Origin: a virus
Lineage: Duplodnaviria; Heunggongvirae; Uroviricota; Caudoviricetes
DNA: 64,000 nucleotides
Strand: one strand, 5' to 3'
Virus record (IMG/VR): IMGVR_UViG_3300015214_000024
Span: 233,787-297,786 of that record
Shown here: piece after piece, positions 14,247 to 64,000 of the stretch
Layout: every line of letters begins with the position of its first letter
Position numbering within the stretch: position 1 is the stretch's first letter
Translations under genes and position numbers: made by a program
Notes under the pieces: model-generated
Database searches by the model: none
The model's input: the letters and a program-made list of their open reading frames with translations, nothing else
What the model was told of the DNA's origin: nothing

Positions 14247-16235
14247 ATGACGAAACTTAATAAAGAACAACAAGAAGCAGTAGATCACAAAGATGGGCCT
14301 TGTATTGTTTTGGCCGGGCCCGGCGCCGGCAAGACGGCAGTATTGACTCGTCGCACCGCAAAACTGGTAGATTCAGGCGTAGCACCTGAACGAGTATTGT
14401 TATTAACGTTTACTCGTTTGGCTGCTAAGGAGATGCTTGATCGGGCAAAAGCCATCAACCCATTGTGCGAAAAAGTTGACGGCGGCACGTTTCACAGTCT
14501 TGCTACCCGCATAGTCAATCAAAATAATCATTTGTTTGGTAAAACCAAGCCATTTACTATTCTTGATGTTGAGGATAACCAGACAATAGTCAAACAGTTG
14601 ACTAATGAAGTCAGAAATGGATCCACAGATGAGGATTGGCCATCGCCATCAATGATTCAGCGAATTATTAGTTTTTCAACTAACACTCGAATGACTATTG
14701 CTGAATCTATTTTTTCAGTATCTCCTAATTATGTTCATCTCACCCAAAAACTTGAAACTATACGTGACAAATATTTTGATTATAAAATTGAACGTGGATT
14801 ATTGGACTATGATGATTGTTTGGAATATTTTTCTGCACTCTTGAGTAATGAAGATATCGCTCCAGCAATTAGGGCCAAATGGGACTATGTCTTAGTTGAT
14901 GAATATCAGGATACTAACCAACTCCAACTTGAGATCGTATATGGGCTGGTACACAAATCTAAAGCCAATATTATGGTTGTGGGTGATCCAGCCCAAAGTA
15001 TATATTCTTTTCGTGGATCTGCCCCAGAAACTATGACGGGCTTTAGAAATCGTTTCCCTAAATCTAAAATAATCAATCTTGATACCAACTATCGATCCAC
15101 ACCAGAGATTGTTGATGTGGTAAATTCAATTGATAAGCGACTTGGTATTGGTTTTAATAGAACATTACATTCATTTCAAAAGAGTAGTGATGACTTACCT
15201 AACTTTGTTGAATGTGGAAATGTTAATTCGCAGGCTGTCACATTGGCTGATAATATACTTGAAAGCAAAAATTCAGGTAAATGTATGTTATCTCAAAACG
15301 CTGTAATTGTTAGAGCTATGGCGTATGCTCGCCCTATTGAGATTGAATTTACAAAACGTAAAATACCTTATAAAATTGTCGGTGGATTGCGTATTGACGA
15401 GGCTGCCCACGTTAAGGATCTGCTCTCATTGGCCCGAATCGCAACGAATCCACAGCACGAACCCGCTTGGCTTCGAATATTGACGAGATTTAAAAAGCTT
15501 GGTGCAAAAACAGCAAATGAAATATCCAGTCTGATGGCTAATGCTGTTGGAATCCAGGATGTTGTTGATCAGCTTGAAAATTACCCTTCTAAGAAATTTG
15601 ATTTTAAACCCGTGATCAATTCTCTAAAGGAGTTTGATAAAAGTGATCTAACTCCTGCTGAAAAACTAGAACTTTGTGTCCAATATATGGAACCAATTTG
15701 GTCTACCATAAAAGAATGGAAAGATGATTGGAAGGACCGTAAAAAGGATCTTGAATCTATAATATCAATAGCTAATGATCATTCTACTGTAGAATCGTTT
15801 CTATCAACTATTACTCTTGATTATTCCGTTGACAACAAAAAGATTCACGAAAAAGAACCAAGATATGAAGATGATATGATTACTATTACTACTGTTCACG
15901 GTTCTAAGGGCCTTGAATGGCCAAGGGTTCATATTCCATCTTTTATATCTGGTCACATACCTTCAACTTATACTCTTGACACAAAAGAAGAAATGCGTAT
16001 ATTGTATGTCGCAGTGAGTAGAGCAAAGAAAGAATTGTTTATCTACAAACCGCTGTTCAATCCGCAAGGATCATTTTCACAAGAATCTGAATTTGAACCG
16101 ATGATTAAGCCACATTGTAATGTGGTTAGAGTTAAAAAGGGATCTCCTTTAGGGAGTGACAGAATAAATTCATCAACTAAAATTGATATGAAGGCAGTGC
16201 TGGCCGCGAAGATGAAAAAACGCCAAACTGCTTGA
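14247..16235 (+). CDS. uvrD: UvrD/PcrA-like SF1 helicase
   Basis: [52 protein letters not shown]. Confidence 0.95.
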
Positions 16236-57025: not shown

Positions 57026-57777
57026 AGAGTCATAATCTCAAAACCATTATTAGTTACAGCTATAGTGTGTTCCCATTGGGCTGCTGGTTCACGATCACAA
57101 GTAACAATAGTCCAACCATCCGGCATTAGTTTAACACGGCCTTTTCCAGTGGTTAAAATTGGTTCAATGGTTAAAAAATCGCCTTCTTGGAAAACGTGAT
57201 TCCAGTCAGGTAACGTTTCATCTATGAAATTTACAACAGAAGGTGCTTGATGGAAAATAGTTCCGATACCGTGCCCGCAAAATTGATCCAAAACTTTCAA
57301 ATTGTATTTCTTGGAAATTTCGTAACCTAAACGGCCAATATCAGCAACAGTAGTACCTGGCTTCAAAATCTCAATCGACCGCATCATTATCTCATAAGTA
57401 ACATCGCTGAGTCGTTTATGCTTAATTGAAGGTTTATCAACAAAGAACATTCTACTCGTATCACCGTGATGACCATCAACGATAACTGTTACGTCGATAT
57501 TCAAACTGTCACCTTTCTTTAACACCTTATCACCAGGTATTCCGTGGCAAACTACGTGATTCACACTTATGCAAGTATGCTTTGGATAAGGCGGCATAGT
57601 ACCCTTACTTGTATATTGATAACAGGCGCTTATTGCACCATTATCGTGTATAAAGTCGTATGCTTTCTGATCTAAAAAGTCAGTGGTTACTCCAGCCTGG
57701 ATGAAATTGGATAAATGATCCAATGTTCGAGCGGCCAAATGTCCTGCAATTCGCATTTTCTCCAATGATGGAGCCAT
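57022..57777 (-). CDS. map: Methionine aminopeptidase type I
   Basis: CISVNHVVCHGIP, NIDVT...GDTSRMF, GHGIG..FH, TIEP, AQWEHT. Confidence 0.96.
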   Translation of the reverse strand: MAPSLEKMRIAGHLAARTLDHLSNFIQAGVTTDFLDQKAYDFIHDNGAISACYQYTSKGTMPPYPKHTCISVNHVVCHGIPGDKVLKKGDSLNIDVTVIVDGHHGDTSRMFFVDKPSIKHKRLSDVTYEIMMRSIEILKPGTTVADIGRLGYEISKKYNLKVLDQFCGHGIGTIFHQAPSVVNFIDETLPDWNHVFQEGDFLTIEPILTTGKGRVKLMPDGWTIVTCDREPAAQWEHTIAVTNNGFEIMTL

Positions 57778-57879
57778 ATTCAATATCCCACATAATGTTA
57801 CGATTAACATTATTAACATACCGCAACAAATAAGTCAATGCAAAAGTGTAGATCTGCACACTTCTGCCAATCTAATATT

Positions 57880-58896
57880 TTAAATTGATTTATTTTGAAT
57901 ATCATATAGTTGTTGGCTGGCTAAATTTTTGTTTTTAGCTTCAACCATAATATCAGCCATTGGTGAAAAAGAAAGAGCCCATTCATTAAGCGCATTGTTC
58001 CAGCATAAATCAGAATGCTTGCGCAATTTGGTTTTTGTGAAACCATTCTCAAATAACATTTTCATATCAGGAAGATCAGTTGCACCAACGTGTTCAATTA
58101 ACATATCGATACTTGAACTAAAGTGTATCTTTGGACGTTGACCTCGCCAAGAACCAAAAATGATATCTAACCGCTTATCGTCAGGCATTATATAATCGCC
58201 ACTATTAATTAGATGGTGATGTATGTCTAATACGATTGAAAATTTGTCGGCTATTTTGATCACATCATCAACACCAAAAGAAAATTCATCATTTTCGACA
58301 GTTAGGAAATTTTTACAAGCCTGACTTAATCGACGGCTATTATTAACGAAACCATCAGTTCCGCCCTCCTTACCACCAACGTGTATATTAATAGCAAAAT
58401 TGTGATCGTGGAATTTACTTCCATCATAGCCCATCATTTCAGCACAATAAGTATGATATTCAAGTTCAATAATAGTCTTATCAACTACATCACTTTTAAT
58501 TGAATTCAAAATACAAAACTGGCCTGGGTGAAAAGAAAGACGGATATTGTGATTTCGAGCGAACGTCCCGCATTCGCCAAGCTTTAAATCAATCATCTTT
58601 TTGATTGATGGCAAGTTGTAAAACCACATAAACTCAGGATGCGTATAAAGTGGTAATAAGTCTGATCCAATTCTCATCATTCTCATACCAACAGGCATCT
58701 GGCTGACGAACAGTAGCATATTACCAAAAGTTCGCAAGTTGTGCTTAAGAAGAGAAATGAGTTTCTTTTCCTGATCAGCGCGACTGTTCCTATTCATAAA
58801 AGCAACAGTTGTGGATTTTAGATTATGATCTTCAATCCATTCTTTTGTTTTAGTAGGATTCATAATTTTACAAGCAAAGCCAATTTTGGCAATCAT
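57880..58896 (-). CDS. uvsE: UV damage endonuclease UvsE/UVDE
   Basis: IGFACK, RLSFHPGQF, NIHVGG, TVENDE, LDIHHH, HSD, MVEAK.K. Confidence 0.92.
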   Translation of the reverse strand: MIAKIGFACKIMNPTKTKEWIEDHNLKSTTVAFMNRNSRADQEKKLISLLKHNLRTFGNMLLFVSQMPVGMRMMRIGSDLLPLYTHPEFMWFYNLPSIKKMIDLKLGECGTFARNHNIRLSFHPGQFCILNSIKSDVVDKTIIELEYHTYCAEMMGYDGSKFHDHNFAINIHVGGKEGGTDGFVNNSRRLSQACKNFLTVENDEFSFGVDDVIKIADKFSIVLDIHHHLINSGDYIMPDDKRLDIIFGSWRGQRPKIHFSSSIDMLIEHVGATDLPDMKMLFENGFTKTKLRKHSDLCWNNALNEWALSFSPMADIMVEAKNKNLASQQLYDIQNKSI

Positions 58897-59600
58897 AATT
58901 TAAATTTGCTCCAAGTGTTTTTATGTTCTAAACATCGATTTAATATAATCCTTAAGGATTCTGGATCATATACAAAACCAAAATGGGTAGTGTCAACCTC
59001 AATATTCTCACTTATGTCAGTTTCAGTCTCTAAGCAATCCTGATATGGTGCAATAATATCAGCTTTGGAATAGAGAGACGAGAATGGGACCACTGGAATT
59101 TCACCCATATAGTTAGTATATTGATCACAAATTGGATGATCATCGATATCAATACCAATTTTTGTATATTTCTTTCGCATTTCTTCAATGTCAATTTTTT
59201 GCTTGAACGGCGTGCCGAGGGTGATAACTGAATTGACTAGTTCTGGCGACATTTTAGCCAGGCAGCGAGCATAAAAGCCTCCCATACTCCATCCAATTAT
59301 AGTAACGGGGGTTTTATGCTCATCATAAATCCTTACTAATTCTTTATGAATAGTATTAATTAATGAATCACTTGCAATAATATTGGTTCCCTGATTCCAA
59401 GTATAGGGCTTGAATCCACAGGAAAGTAAAGCCGATCTTAGCAATAATGTGGCGTGATCATTAGTTAAAAAGCCAGGAATTACTAAAACTGGCCGGCCGT
59501 CAGCCTCTTCCTTGTATGAGAATGATTCTGCCGAGTCGAGCAAAAAATCAGCTATAAAATTAGGAGTCCTCTTTTTCAATAGATTAAAGAATTCGTCCAT
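58893..59600 (-). CDS. Alpha/beta hydrolase (lipase/esterase)
   Basis: PVLVIPGF, GWSMGG nucleophile elbow, D.IA, H.G. Confidence 0.9.
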   Translation of the reverse strand: MDEFFNLLKKRTPNFIADFLLDSAESFSYKEEADGRPVLVIPGFLTNDHATLLLRSALLSCGFKPYTWNQGTNIIASDSLINTIHKELVRIYDEHKTPVTIIGWSMGGFYARCLAKMSPELVNSVITLGTPFKQKIDIEEMRKKYTKIGIDIDDHPICDQYTNYMGEIPVVPFSSLYSKADIIAPYQDCLETETDISENIEVDTTHFGFVYDPESLRIILNRCLEHKNTWSKFKL

Positions 59601-61210
59601 TAAACTTGTATCCTTTCTTCAACCATCTGAATAAATTGGTCTAAACCAACCATTTCAGCAAATGTACCTACTCTGGGCCCTTGTTCTGAACCAAACACGA
59701 TTTCGTAGATGGCCTTGAACCATTCTTGAAGCTTCTCATAATTAGCTGACTTCCCAATTTCGTAAACAATACTTTGAATTGATTCAGCTGTTGGATTATC
59801 CAACGTCCTAAATTCATCGAGCATTGACGATAGTAGGCCATATTCATATTCAGTTGGTGACCGAAATGAAATCGATCCCGAAAGATGATCATTAAAATAA
59901 TTACCAGCTAACGGAATAATTGAACTGACTTGGTTATTGCCACAATATTGCTCAACAATCTTTCCTACTACTTCTGAATCCGTAATACCTGTTGATCCAA
60001 TCAAGTTCAGCAATAGGCTATAAGATACCTCATTATGTGAAGAATTTACATCGCCATTATGCACGTGGTAAACTGGATTACCAAGCTGTTGGCTGGCCGT
60101 CTGAGTCGCATATAGCTTTAAACTGTTATTATAATCATCCATAGCAATAGGAACAACACCAGCGTGAAGATTCTTCGCTCTAGTTGGCTCGCGATACAAA
60201 TAATATGCGAGACTTTCTTGAGTTCCATATTGAAGCCATTCTTCAATAGTGAAACCATTGCCCTTTGACTTTGAAATCTTTGCTCCATTCTTGTCAAGAA
60301 ATAGTTCATAAGTCAAATTAATTGGTGGGATGCCACCAAGAACTCGACAGATTTGTCCTGAAAGACGGACACTGTCAGTCAAATCCTTACCAGACATTTC
60401 ATAATCAACATCAAAATAGACCCAGCGCATTGCCCAGTCGACCTTCCACTGAAGCTTAGTACGGCCGTTGTGGATATCGACAACGCACGGAGTAGATCCG
60501 AGATTGAACTCCAAAAACCTCTTCCCATTTTCTGTTGAGAGAACAACCGGCACTTGGTTAACGTGTGGGGTCTTGTTTAAACTGACCGAATCGTGGAAAA
60601 CTGGCATAAACGGACTATATGTTTGGCGGCGGTCCTCTCCTAAGGTAGGAAGGATGATATCCAAAATAGCCTGATTGCTATCGAATACTCTGTCCAGCAT
60701 ATTGTTAAACTTGCCAAAACTATAATAATCTGAAGAGCTTACAAAACTCACTCGGCTCCGATTCGGCGAAGAGCCAACAACACTATTATTATAAGTAGCC
60801 AGGATGGCATCAACAAATTCTACCAATCGAGTGTTATTTGCATCAGCAAAGCTGCCGTCTTCTGTTCCATAAGGATTTGGGACCATCGATAGAGGCTCAC
60901 CCAAATGGTCATTCATCCATTCAGGCATTCCATCAGGCACCTTGCGGAAACCATCATAATCGTCACTAAACATAATAAGGCGAGTCTGGTAGGCATTCTG
61001 AGTTAGATCATCAAATGCCTTCATTACCCAAAGTGTACGAACTACTTCAGCAAATGTACCAATGTGGGGAGCGCCAGACGGGCCGTAACCTGATTCGAAG
61101 GTCACAACATCACCTGGCTTCTTGCCCTTACGCTCAATGTGCTTTAGAAGCCTCTTGGCCTCGACGAATGGCCAGGCCTTTGACTCTTCATACACTTGAA
61201 CCATATTCAT
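59600..61210 (-). CDS. lysS: Class I lysyl-tRNA synthetase
   Basis: AWPFVEA, GYGPSGAPHIGT, KLQWKVDW, KISKSKGN, GPRVGTF. Confidence 0.95.
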   Translation of the reverse strand: MNMVQVYEESKAWPFVEAKRLLKHIERKGKKPGDVVTFESGYGPSGAPHIGTFAEVVRTLWVMKAFDDLTQNAYQTRLIMFSDDYDGFRKVPDGMPEWMNDHLGEPLSMVPNPYGTEDGSFADANNTRLVEFVDAILATYNNSVVGSSPNRSRVSFVSSSDYYSFGKFNNMLDRVFDSNQAILDIILPTLGEDRRQTYSPFMPVFHDSVSLNKTPHVNQVPVVLSTENGKRFLEFNLGSTPCVVDIHNGRTKLQWKVDWAMRWVYFDVDYEMSGKDLTDSVRLSGQICRVLGGIPPINLTYELFLDKNGAKISKSKGNGFTIEEWLQYGTQESLAYYLYREPTRAKNLHAGVVPIAMDDYNNSLKLYATQTASQQLGNPVYHVHNGDVNSSHNEVSYSLLLNLIGSTGITDSEVVGKIVEQYCGNNQVSSIIPLAGNYFNDHLSGSISFRSPTEYEYGLLSSMLDEFRTLDNPTAESIQSIVYEIGKSANYEKLQEWFKAIYEIVFGSEQGPRVGTFAEMVGLDQFIQMVEERIQV

Positions 61211-63743
61211 TTTCTACGTCCTCGCATCGTTGACACATATCTTTGTCGTTCACCTTAGCATAGTATGTCCTACAACGCAAGCACTTTTCACCATTATAAA
61301 CTTCAAAATGAACCGTTCGGGTTCCGACTTGCTCATTTTTATATTGAGCACAACCTAAAACTTCTTTCCAATCAACAGGGAGCGGAGATTTGAAACATAC
61401 TACCATCTGCTCCATCTGCCATTTTTGTTCGCTACGTTGATCTTCGAAAGCTTTCAATACTTCATCGCGTTCATTTTCGACGAATTCCCAGTACCCTAAA
61501 TTTTCACAGTCTAAATCATTCAAGCAATAGCTTGGATCAAATCCATATTGTGAAACTTCTGCCACCAAAAATGGTGTAGTTGGTTCCATTACATAAAGTA
61601 ACGTTCTGACTAGGCGATCCAACGTGTATAATACTGCCTGCCTGCGATTGCTTCCCTTTGAATCACAATACAAAGAATCTTTGACTTGAGTGAAATAAAA
61701 TTCACTGACCCAGCGCACATATGCCAATGCCTTTCTTACTGTCGGGAAAGTACCACCACATTGACTCTGTACCAATTCTTTAGCTTTATATAATACATAA
61801 CGGTCAACTGGAAGCAGTTCTGCACTTTGATTAACCACTTCGCCATTGAGGTTTGCTAAGCAGAACCTCACCGTGTTACGGACTTTGTCATAATTTGCCT
61901 GTGTTTGCTTGAGCTTTTCTTCATCAAACTCAACATCTGAATCAGCAAACCCGCTCAACAGCCACAGTCTCATAACATCGGCGCCATATTTTTCAAGAAG
62001 ATCTGGTAGCCCGCCACCATTACCAACACTCTTTGACATTTTCTGGCGGCGCTGGAGCACAAATCCGTGAGTGAACACGTTTTTAAAAGGTAATTTGCCA
62101 TAAAGAGCATAATGGACAAGTGCGCTGGACTGGAACCAACCCCGATGCTGATCAGTACCTTCTAAGTACATATCGGCCCGATCTACGTCAGGATATACAG
62201 CTTTTAAACTTGATCCAGAATCAAACCACACATCAAGAACATCCATCACTTTTTGGTATTGGCCGTGATATTTTTCAGGCAAGAAAAAGTCAGCGTCGTG
62301 TTCATACCAAACATCACTACTATGTTCTTTAAACATTTTTACAACATTAGTATTGACCTCAGGATCAACGAGCATTTCTCCAGTTTCATTGTGGAGAAAC
62401 AGGGCCATAGGCACACCCCAAAGACGTTGACGACTTAAACACCATTCAGATCGGTCGCCAAACATAAATTTGAATCGATTAGCATAGCCAGTAGAATTCC
62501 AATTGACTTCGTCAACTTCTTCGAGCAATTTATCCTTGAAAGAATCAAAATTGAAGAACCAATTTTTCTTGGTTTTCACAACTACTGGTTTTTTAGATCG
62601 CCAGGAGACTTGACGTTCCGACACTCGGTGCAACTCATAATAATAAACTAAATCTGGTCGACTTTCGAGGTATTCCTTTACGGCCTGATTTGCTTTATAG
62701 ACGTGGACTTTTACGCCATTGACTTCCATCATAGCGTCATCATCAACCAGCCCTTCAAGATTTAGGTTATACTTTACACCAAGCTTAAAATCGTCAAATC
62801 CGTGTCCAGGTACAACGTGTAAAAAGCCAGACCCAGCGTGTTCATTAACCGAATCATTTTCTTCCAACAGCGGTGACCTACCCCCAAAAGGAGGATTGAC
62901 AAATTTACCTTTTAGTTCATTTGGATCAAAATTTCTAACAAATTCCAAACCAAGCTCTTGGTTGAGCATAAAGCCAGCACTTTCATTCATCACAACATAC
63001 TTGCCAGATGGTGTTTTGCCCATTTTATAGGTTGCATCAGAATTATAAGCTACCGCTTTATTACCAGGCAATGTCCAAGGTGTAGTGGTCCACACTAAAA
63101 CGCTATAATTTTCACCTTCAACTGGAAATTCAACAAATAATGAATCGAGCGGTAAACTTACAGATTCAAGTTCAGCTTCAGCCAATGTAGTCTTTTCTAC
63201 TGGTGACCAATGAACCGGGCGGAATCGCTGTTCCAAAAGGCCACGCTCTTGAAGTCCATAAAGATTCTTCAAAGTTTCAGCTTCGTATTCATAGTCGTGA
63301 GTTTTATAGCATTTATCCCATTCGGCTCTTACACCAAATGATTTAAATTCTTCTTTTTGAACGTCTACCCACGAATCAGCATATGCTCGGCAATCCTTTC
63401 GGAACTGCACCACGTCAGCATCTTTACTCTTTCCAGCTTTAGTGTATTGTTCTTCAACTTTAACTTCGATCGGTAAGCCGTGACAATCCCATCCTGGACG
63501 GAACGATACGGTTTTTCCATTAAAGCGTTCTTGATGACGATTTACAGAATCTTTCAACACTTTGTTCAAAAAGTGTCCAAGGTGTAAATTACCATTTGCA
63601 TAAGGGGGGCCGTCGTGCAACAAAAAATCAAATCCATCAGATTGTGGATGAGTAGTTACTACTTTAGTGAATGTTGTGTCTGACCCAGCCTGCCGTTTAA
63701 GTGGGAAAGAAGTTGATGGTAGAAAAAGATTAAATTTAGACAT
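61188..63743 (-). CDS. ileS: Isoleucyl-tRNA synthetase (type 1)
   Basis: HDGPPYANG.LHLGH, GWDCHGLPIE, WTTTPWT, WCLSRQR.WG, EGTDQHRGWF, KMSKS, C-terminal CxxC...CxxC. Confidence 0.96.
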   Translation of the reverse strand: MSKFNLFLPSTSFPLKRQAGSDTTFTKVVTTHPQSDGFDFLLHDGPPYANGNLHLGHFLNKVLKDSVNRHQERFNGKTVSFRPGWDCHGLPIEVKVEEQYTKAGKSKDADVVQFRKDCRAYADSWVDVQKEEFKSFGVRAEWDKCYKTHDYEYEAETLKNLYGLQERGLLEQRFRPVHWSPVEKTTLAEAELESVSLPLDSLFVEFPVEGENYSVLVWTTTPWTLPGNKAVAYNSDATYKMGKTPSGKYVVMNESAGFMLNQELGLEFVRNFDPNELKGKFVNPPFGGRSPLLEENDSVNEHAGSGFLHVVPGHGFDDFKLGVKYNLNLEGLVDDDAMMEVNGVKVHVYKANQAVKEYLESRPDLVYYYELHRVSERQVSWRSKKPVVVKTKKNWFFNFDSFKDKLLEEVDEVNWNSTGYANRFKFMFGDRSEWCLSRQRLWGVPMALFLHNETGEMLVDPEVNTNVVKMFKEHSSDVWYEHDADFFLPEKYHGQYQKVMDVLDVWFDSGSSLKAVYPDVDRADMYLEGTDQHRGWFQSSALVHYALYGKLPFKNVFTHGFVLQRRQKMSKSVGNGGGLPDLLEKYGADVMRLWLLSGFADSDVEFDEEKLKQTQANYDKVRNTVRFCLANLNGEVVNQSAELLPVDRYVLYKAKELVQSQCGGTFPTVRKALAYVRWVSEFYFTQVKDSLYCDSKGSNRRQAVLYTLDRLVRTLLYVMEPTTPFLVAEVSQYGFDPSYCLNDLDCENLGYWEFVENERDEVLKAFEDQRSEQKWQMEQMVVCFKSPLPVDWKEVLGCAQYKNEQVGTRTVHFEVYNGEKCLRCRTYYAKVNDKDMCQRCEDVENEYGSSV

Positions 63744-63747
63744 TTTA

Positions 63748-63848
63748 AAAACTCCTATTGAATAAAAATCACAAATTAACTTGGACCAGATAACGTATTA
63801 CCTGGCCTTTATAATTCGTATATTTTTAATCAAATTAAGAGTTTTCAT
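63748..63848 (-). promoter_or_regulatory. Ile-rich leader peptide MKTLNLIKNIRIIKAR (63848-63798) with anti-SD pairing to the ileS RBS
   Basis: 4 Ile codons; AAAACTCTTA pairs with TAGGAGTTTT; UACG-capped hairpin at the leader stop. Confidence 0.75.
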
Positions 63849-64000
63849 TCCTGTTCTTCTTTAATAACTTCTTTCAAAGCGAGTTCTACAAATTGATCGA
63901 TTGAAATTCCACGAAGTGCAGCAGCAGCTTCGAGCATTTCCTTAACATCGTCATCAAGTTCCAAAGTTAAAACAACCCTCGGGTCATATTCTTCACCTTT
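63845..64000 (-). CDS. 5'-truncated protein with ribbon-helix-helix-like C-terminus
   Basis: ...VVLTLELDDDVKEMLEAAAALRGISIDQFVELALKE... Confidence 0.55.
   Translation of the reverse strand, partial: KGEEYDPRVVLTLELDDDVKEMLEAAAALRGISIDQFVELALKEVIKEEQE

Follow-up and report, generated by a model that had tools for sequence, protein, structure and literature searches.

A candidate isoleucine-sensing translational attenuator upstream of a jumbo-phage ileS gene

The isoleucyl-tRNA synthetase gene (ileS) of a 455-kb jumbo phage is preceded by a 16-codon leader ORF that, judging from sequence conservation and folding models, probably functions as an Ile-sensing translational attenuator, raising IleRS production when charged tRNA-Ile is short (we put the probability at about 0.7). 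Comparison of leader sequences indicates that the conserved signal is a CGA-ATT codon pair followed at constant spacing by a stem that begins at nt 9 from the ATT; this core was missed by the first-pass annotation of the DNA. In agreement with that annotation, our search of the literature outside subscription journals found no paper on a cognate-codon attenuator for a phage aminoacyl-tRNA synthetase gene.

The window analyzed here is a stretch of 64,000 nucleotides within a virus record (G000:C1) of 455,147 bp with 69 tRNA calls. The ileS gene (61188..63743, minus strand) encodes an 851-aa isoleucyl-tRNA synthetase whose best family match is ileS (601 bits, just under the cut-off of 621), and its end is overlapped by lysS (59600..61210, minus strand), which encodes a class I lysyl-tRNA synthetase. 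Upstream lies the 3' end (63845..64000, minus strand) of a gene of ~168 aa with a C-terminal ribbon-helix-helix (RHH)/Arc-like segment. The neighborhood further contains gltX, greA, MetAP, and groES, with a tRNA-Ser cluster, serS, and tilS just past the window edge. The best cellular matches of the phage IleRS are alphaproteobacterial, making an alphaproteobacterial host likely. In an IleRS tree built with a quick method and rooted at its midpoint, the phage enzymes cluster with those of other phages, adjoining but outside the sampled Alphaproteobacteria, so that no donor can be named. Elsewhere in the record, we observed a release-factor-like gene (302377-303030, minus strand) with an in-frame TGA that interrupts it after codon 31, and two tRNAs with CUA (amber) anticodons (15281-15358 and 165512-165586). 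A 113-nt tRNA-like element in the window (56368-56480, minus strand) gave an Rfam match of 32.5 bits and was missed by ARAGORN.

The leader ORF (63798..63848, minus strand) comprises 16 codons and a TAA stop (63800-63798). Its ATG (63848-63846) shares nucleotides with the upstream gene's TGA as ATGA, and isoleucine is encoded at codons 7 (ATT), 10 (ATA), 12 (ATT), and 13 (ATA). Every feature listed in the first-pass annotation is present in the sequence. Four Ile residues in 15 codons is unusual relative to phage codon usage (p = 0.018) and unremarkable relative to base shuffles (p = 0.13). The count is within the expectation from AT bias, and Ile enrichment by itself is weak, unconvincing evidence. 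The annotation had named such bias, together with absence of the enrichment from homologs, as the explanation opposed to its proposal; the bias holds for the count, but the homologs described below keep 3–4 Ile codons.

Folding predicts one interrupted hairpin of 42 bp (63746..63847, minus strand) with an energy of -39.1 kcal/mol (z = -7.93, 0 of 200 shuffles as good), in which all of the leader is paired to the 55-nt stretch preceding ileS, a stretch that contains the Shine-Dalgarno (SD) sequence. The ileS SD, AGGAG (63752..63756, minus strand), is paired in this resting fold, in which leader codons 1–5 form an anti-SD arm (63835..63847, minus strand) against the SD and its spacer, and the ileS ATG lies 2 nt past the hairpin base. 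The complementarity between leader and ileS initiation region noted earlier is thus confirmed by folding and larger than had been claimed. The UACG-capped hairpin reported at the stop codon was also found: it is a 10-bp apical stem (63784..63807, minus strand), the top of whose 5' arm is the leader stop codon, and it starts at nt 9 counted from the ATT of the conserved core CGA-ATT-A(TA) (63810..63818, minus strand). Opening the ileS initiation region is predicted to cost 14.2 kcal/mol, compared with a genome median of 8.2 kcal/mol, a degree of closure matched by 26 of 270 sampled genes.

No similar long sequestering hairpins were seen before this phage's other synthetase genes, and the hairpin is present as a single copy in the genome, by which we rejected a repeat or mobile element. 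The leader region yielded no intrinsic terminator and no competing antiterminator, which led us to reject a classical terminator-type attenuator. An Rfam scan of positions 54000-64000 returned no T-box and no other match for the leader; a T-box was rejected on the lack of a match to an antiterminator/antisequestrator or a Stem I specifier. We also rejected a read-through fusion of leader and ileS, which are in frame in this genome only and not in 6 relatives; neither a conserved slippery sequence nor a conserved in-frame fusion was found at the leader.

Searches of GenBank phages and IMG/VR by protein, DNA, and pattern found no close relatives. Eleven IleRS relatives with 53–78% identity were fetched with their flanks from metagenome assemblies. 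Seven of these share the upstream RHH-like gene and a gap of 93–106 nt before ileS; together with the window they make up group 1 (8 loci, the relatives' IleRS being 58–78% identical to that of the window), and the RHH-like gene precedes the leader in all eight. The search for Ile-rich leaders in related phages, suggested in the first-pass annotation, found one in all seven same-context loci, each keeping the ATG, 3–4 Ile codons, and the predicted fold. The TAA is at the stem top in six, and the seventh has an assembly gap there. The ATG is kept across three different stop/start arrangements with the upstream gene, two ATA codons are kept in 8/8 leaders, and the sole length change is an in-frame loss of 3 nt. 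The two most distant leaders have their first Ile codons at other positions, with CGA-ATT-A invariant, and in L021 and L024 Ile codons have reappeared at new positions. In the alignment of the related leaders, 93.9% of cells are paired; 4 of 43 pairs have changed on both sides, a number reached by 33 of 500 shuffles, and covariation gives the predicted fold modest support. The core also pairs inside the hairpin, and part of its conservation may be structural. The lysS gene behind the leader is variable and sometimes absent; since the two most distant leader loci have no lysS after ileS, the leader goes with ileS, and the suggested co-control of LysRS is unsupported.

Four related phages have no mini-ORF before ileS, which counts against the Ile-sensing reading. 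In these loci (group 2; L019, L023, L025, and L027), a gene of ~137 aa belonging to no known family overlaps the ileS start, and its 3' end, 150 nt upstream of ileS, carries a conserved multi-stem fold that extends to the ileS SD and in which changes at silent sites are compensated. All four contain CAG-ATT-AC with a stem at nt 9, and loci of both designs are intermixed on the IleRS tree. The group 2 region may also be an Ile sensor, although one modeled ribosome on its ATT barely opens the SD in 3/4 loci.

The core is also found in bacteria. Among 82 ileS loci, mostly from Alphaproteobacteria, 44 are preceded by a short ORF that begins with ATG, contains CGA-ATT-A(T/C/G)N-NGC-CCG-G, and ends at a stop within the stem that follows, the core being in frame in 44/44. 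ATT is present in 43 and CGA in 37 of these leaders, compared with backgrounds of 0.4% and 0.16% in the same ileS genes; neither codon was imposed by the search. ATA is common at the two codons before the bacterial core (background, 0.06%), a preference for ATA-rich codons just upstream of the core that the phage leader shares, as it does the short ORF before ileS, the CGA-ATT-A(T/C/G)N core, the stem at nt 9, and a stop in or on the stem. Whereas the bacterial leaders lie near a promoter, that of the phage is coupled to an upstream gene; it also does not keep the Pro-Ala codons of the bacterial CCCGG...CCGGG stem and has a long 3' extension that pairs back over the SD. No SD pairing was seen in the bacterial copies, in which 40–170 nt, often C-rich, lie between leader stop and gene.

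The 8-mer of the core has 40 copies in the phage genome, of which only the one at ileS lies within a short ORF that starts with ATG and precedes a gene. By rough arithmetic, for a likeness that was first spotted by eye, the chance of finding the core in the leader is ~7e-4 over 15 in-frame positions. A 20-nt matrix of the bacterial leaders scores the phage leader negatively, a covariance model of the phage leader found no bacterial leader, and overall similarity between them is absent; we therefore rejected homology of the whole element, which was not detected beyond the core. The phage and bacterial cores themselves may be related by descent, the alternative being convergence. Judged by this shared core, the phage element is not an isolated phage invention but has its core in common with a widespread host-side leader.

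The core pattern was present in 96 of 301 alphaproteobacterial genomes, often in 2–4 copies. We assigned targets to 63 hits taken from multi-copy genomes: 20 were before ileS, about 18 before a small ACT-like gene, 1 before a threonine ammonia-lyase gene, and 3 before an AAA_33 gene, with 5 short ORFs without an assigned target and 16 hits outside short ORFs. The small ACT-like gene has one weak ACT_5 match (E 0.03) and no match in the PDB, and presumably resembles IlvM; in two cases it is directly followed by a citramalate synthase gene scoring above the NCBIfam cut-off. CimA and IlvA provide two routes to 2-oxobutanoate for isoleucine synthesis. The AAA_33 targets have no known link to Ile and count against the Ile-sensing reading. 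Tandem copies of the CGA-ATT leader with its stem were observed in L154 and L156. Taken together, the leaders of this type in the alphaproteobacterial genomes (L142-L198) look like an undescribed isoleucine regulon. Rfam had no match for the bacterial leaders or for the other phage attenuators described below. A profiling study of Caulobacter crescentus names a translated ileS leader CDS, CCNA_03934 (PMC4117421), which was mapped there as a CDS and served only as a control; it is likened to our leaders by its annotation.

The distance between core and stem is shared as well. A first stable stem begins at nt 9 from the ATT in 6/7 phage leaders and in 22 of 45 bacterial hits (28 at 8–9), for which the count required CGAATT only, compared with 3% and 2.4% of background Ile codons in the phage and bacterial sets, respectively. 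With this ATT in the A site, the stem would start at +12 from the P-site codon, at the ribosome's mRNA entry site. Stem-loops at +12 spacing inhibit A-site tRNA binding (PMC7282821), and the pausing stem-loops of dnaX and HIV studied there have the same spacing. Those stem-loops are frameshift signals; the phage leaders have no conserved slippery sequence or in-frame fusion, and the proposed use of the stem is sharper sensing at one Ile codon: by this analogy, the stem would make the core ATT slow and hence more sensitive to the supply of Ile-tRNA. The first-pass annotation had also raised sensing of lysidine-modified tRNA-Ile2 through the ATA codons. In its favor, two ATA codons are retained throughout group 1 and the phage carries four CAU tRNAs and a short TilS of 223 aa that scores above the lysidine_TilS_N cut-off (record positions 303720-304391, plus strand), all of which bear on AUA decoding. 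Because the invariant codon is ATT, read by tRNA-Ile1, AUA or lysidine sensing would be secondary at most.

We then modeled ribosomes on the leaders of 7 phages by equilibrium folding with assumed footprints, holding ribosome-covered bases unpaired. Opening the SD and start costs 10–21 kcal/mol with no ribosome, 3–5 kcal/mol with a ribosome on the first Ile codon, and 10–20 kcal/mol with a ribosome at the stop. One ribosome on the core ATT opens the region partially (5–14 kcal/mol), and a core stall plus a second ribosome on the leader start brings the cost to 3–8 kcal/mol. In these models, the switch logic holds in every locus. The earlier proposal that an Ile stall frees the ileS SD is thus favored by conservation, the bacterial core, and footprint folding, but a single ribosome on the core ATT would open the SD only in part, so a queue step, assumed from the 11-codon spacing, would be needed.

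According to the mechanism we propose, ribosomes ending the upstream gene would restart on the overlapping leader ATG. With enough Ile-tRNA they would pass the Ile codons, stop at the stem top, and leave, whereupon the hairpin would re-close and ileS would be accessible only briefly. When Ile-tRNA is short, ribosomes would wait on codons 7 or 10, covering the anti-SD directly, or alternatively on the stem-gated ATT at codon 12, in which case the next ribosome would queue on the leader start 11 codons behind and cover the anti-SD. Either way, the SD would be held open and IleRS would be made.

Several other explanations were weighed. Constitutive translational coupling or dampening, in which the hairpin leaves ileS translation dependent on ribosomes arriving from the upstream gene via the leader without any sensing, would account for the retained ATGA overlap, the lower opening cost with a ribosome on any of codons 3–9, an Ile count that fits AT bias, and the four related phages in which ileS merely overlaps the ~137-aa gene. 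We consider it unlikely, as it leaves unexplained both the identity of the invariant codons with a bacterial Ile-pathway core at an equal stem distance and the Ile codons regained at new positions in L021 and L024. The same Ile sensor might instead act on transcript fate, through Rho-dependent or intrinsic termination or decay, rather than on initiation, as the bacterial copies with their long, often C-rich gaps and no visible SD pairing would allow, and as the terminators at other leaders of this phage might suggest. At the ileS leader, however, no terminator-like site is present, the U run after the SD also occurs before gltX and so is a normal spacer, and the 55 nt from leader stop to ileS start are nearly all paired with the leader; this output is accordingly improbable.

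A protein-binding operator is very improbable. ThrRS binds an operator RNA at thrS, and here the strong nucleotide-level conservation of the core and the RHH-like gene directly upstream could fit IleRS or another protein on the RNA, or the RHH-like protein on a DNA palindrome. The core, however, is always in frame within an ATG-started short ORF, the loop is variable and lacks a GAU anticodon, the hairpin has no second copy in the genome, and G-U pairs with G-C/G-U exchange point to RNA rather than a DNA palindrome. Temporal control of the T4 type, in which the hairpin would silence ileS on a long early mRNA and a late promoter inside it would serve as bypass, is hardly credible: hairpins of such appearance with TA(A)TAAATA inside do precede other genes of this genome, but the sequestering hairpin contains no late promoter, neither late motif occurs within 600 nt upstream of ileS in any of the 7 loci, and no sigma70-like site was found in the leader.

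The Ile-sensing leader probably works, as far as modeling can tell, like a translational attenuator read by hungry codons. In pheM-pheST of Escherichia coli and in the classical amino-acid attenuators trpL, hisL, and ilvL, cognate codons of a leader ORF report the supply of charged tRNA. The phage leader likewise carries cognate codons (3–4 Ile in 8/8 loci) but has no terminator/antiterminator, using SD sequestration instead, and in place of the long run of classical attenuators it has a few scattered regulatory codons and a stem-gated codon. In ermC and cat, a ribosome stalled on the leader ORF frees a sequestered SD. Here too the resting fold pairs the ileS SD with coding sequence of the leader, and in the folding models a ribosome on the regulatory codons opens it whereas one at the stop does not; the signal would be a hungry codon, not antibiotic-dependent nascent-peptide arrest. 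Further parallels are the actinobacterial LEU element, in which a cognate codon run pairs with the leuA SD without a terminator, and the translational ileS T-box, with the same target gene and an SD-sequestering output (PMC1262725). Unlike these, the phage leader has no predicted pseudoknot and no T-box match. Leu-codon mutations left leuA regulation unchanged, according to evidence cited in PMC1262725, which calls for caution with this class.

Other leaders were found in this and other phages. In the present genome, codon-matched leaders with terminators precede Ser, His/Tyr/Glu, Leu/Asn/Pro, and mixed tRNA clusters (record positions about 300240-300460, minus strand, and 180020-180420, 190900-191500, and 209600-209905, plus strand). 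In an unrelated group of AT-rich jumbo phages, nine IMG/VR loci (L032, L038, L039, L042, L043, L044, L051, L053, and L057) have leaders about 170 nt upstream of ileS in which four Ile codons stand in a row, accompanied by competing helices and a terminator with a U tail. These two sets of leaders add to the case for Ile sensing at the present leader. L050, on a separate IleRS branch, has the same layout as the nine loci. In L028, an ORF of 11 codons, three of them for Ile, is located 28 nt upstream of the ileS start, which it overlaps, and comes directly after a promoter-like site, an arrangement that may be due to chance. We also observed long RBS-covering hairpins with TA(A)TAAATA, resembling T4 late promoters, at genes at 158922 (plus strand), 387232-388272 (minus strand), and 428309 (plus strand) of the record.

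A tentative joint reading, to which we give somewhat less than even credence, is that CGA-ATT plus an entry-channel stem forms a portable hairpin-gated Ile pause module, used by Alphaproteobacteria before ileS, cimA, and ilvA-like genes, which this phage clade took over and connected to SD sequestration either as a coupled mini-ORF (8 loci) or buried in the 3' end of the ~137-aa gene (4 loci). The leader would then be one sensor of a phage-wide system making backup translation parts only when host supply fails. The fixed stem spacing would represent a natural regulatory use of the hairpin-induced A-site inhibition described for frameshift signals (PMC7282821), and the stem-gated pause offers a mechanism for the unexplained alphaproteobacterial ileS leader. 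The leader region could serve as a 110-nt reporter for the timing of tRNA-Ile shortage during infection. Such a sensor also bears on the reason for which jumbo phages carry aminoacyl-tRNA synthetases and tRNAs, since it suggests that IleRS is a backup produced on demand as charged tRNA-Ile runs low, possibly through starvation, a tRNA-targeting defense, or synthetase inhibition.
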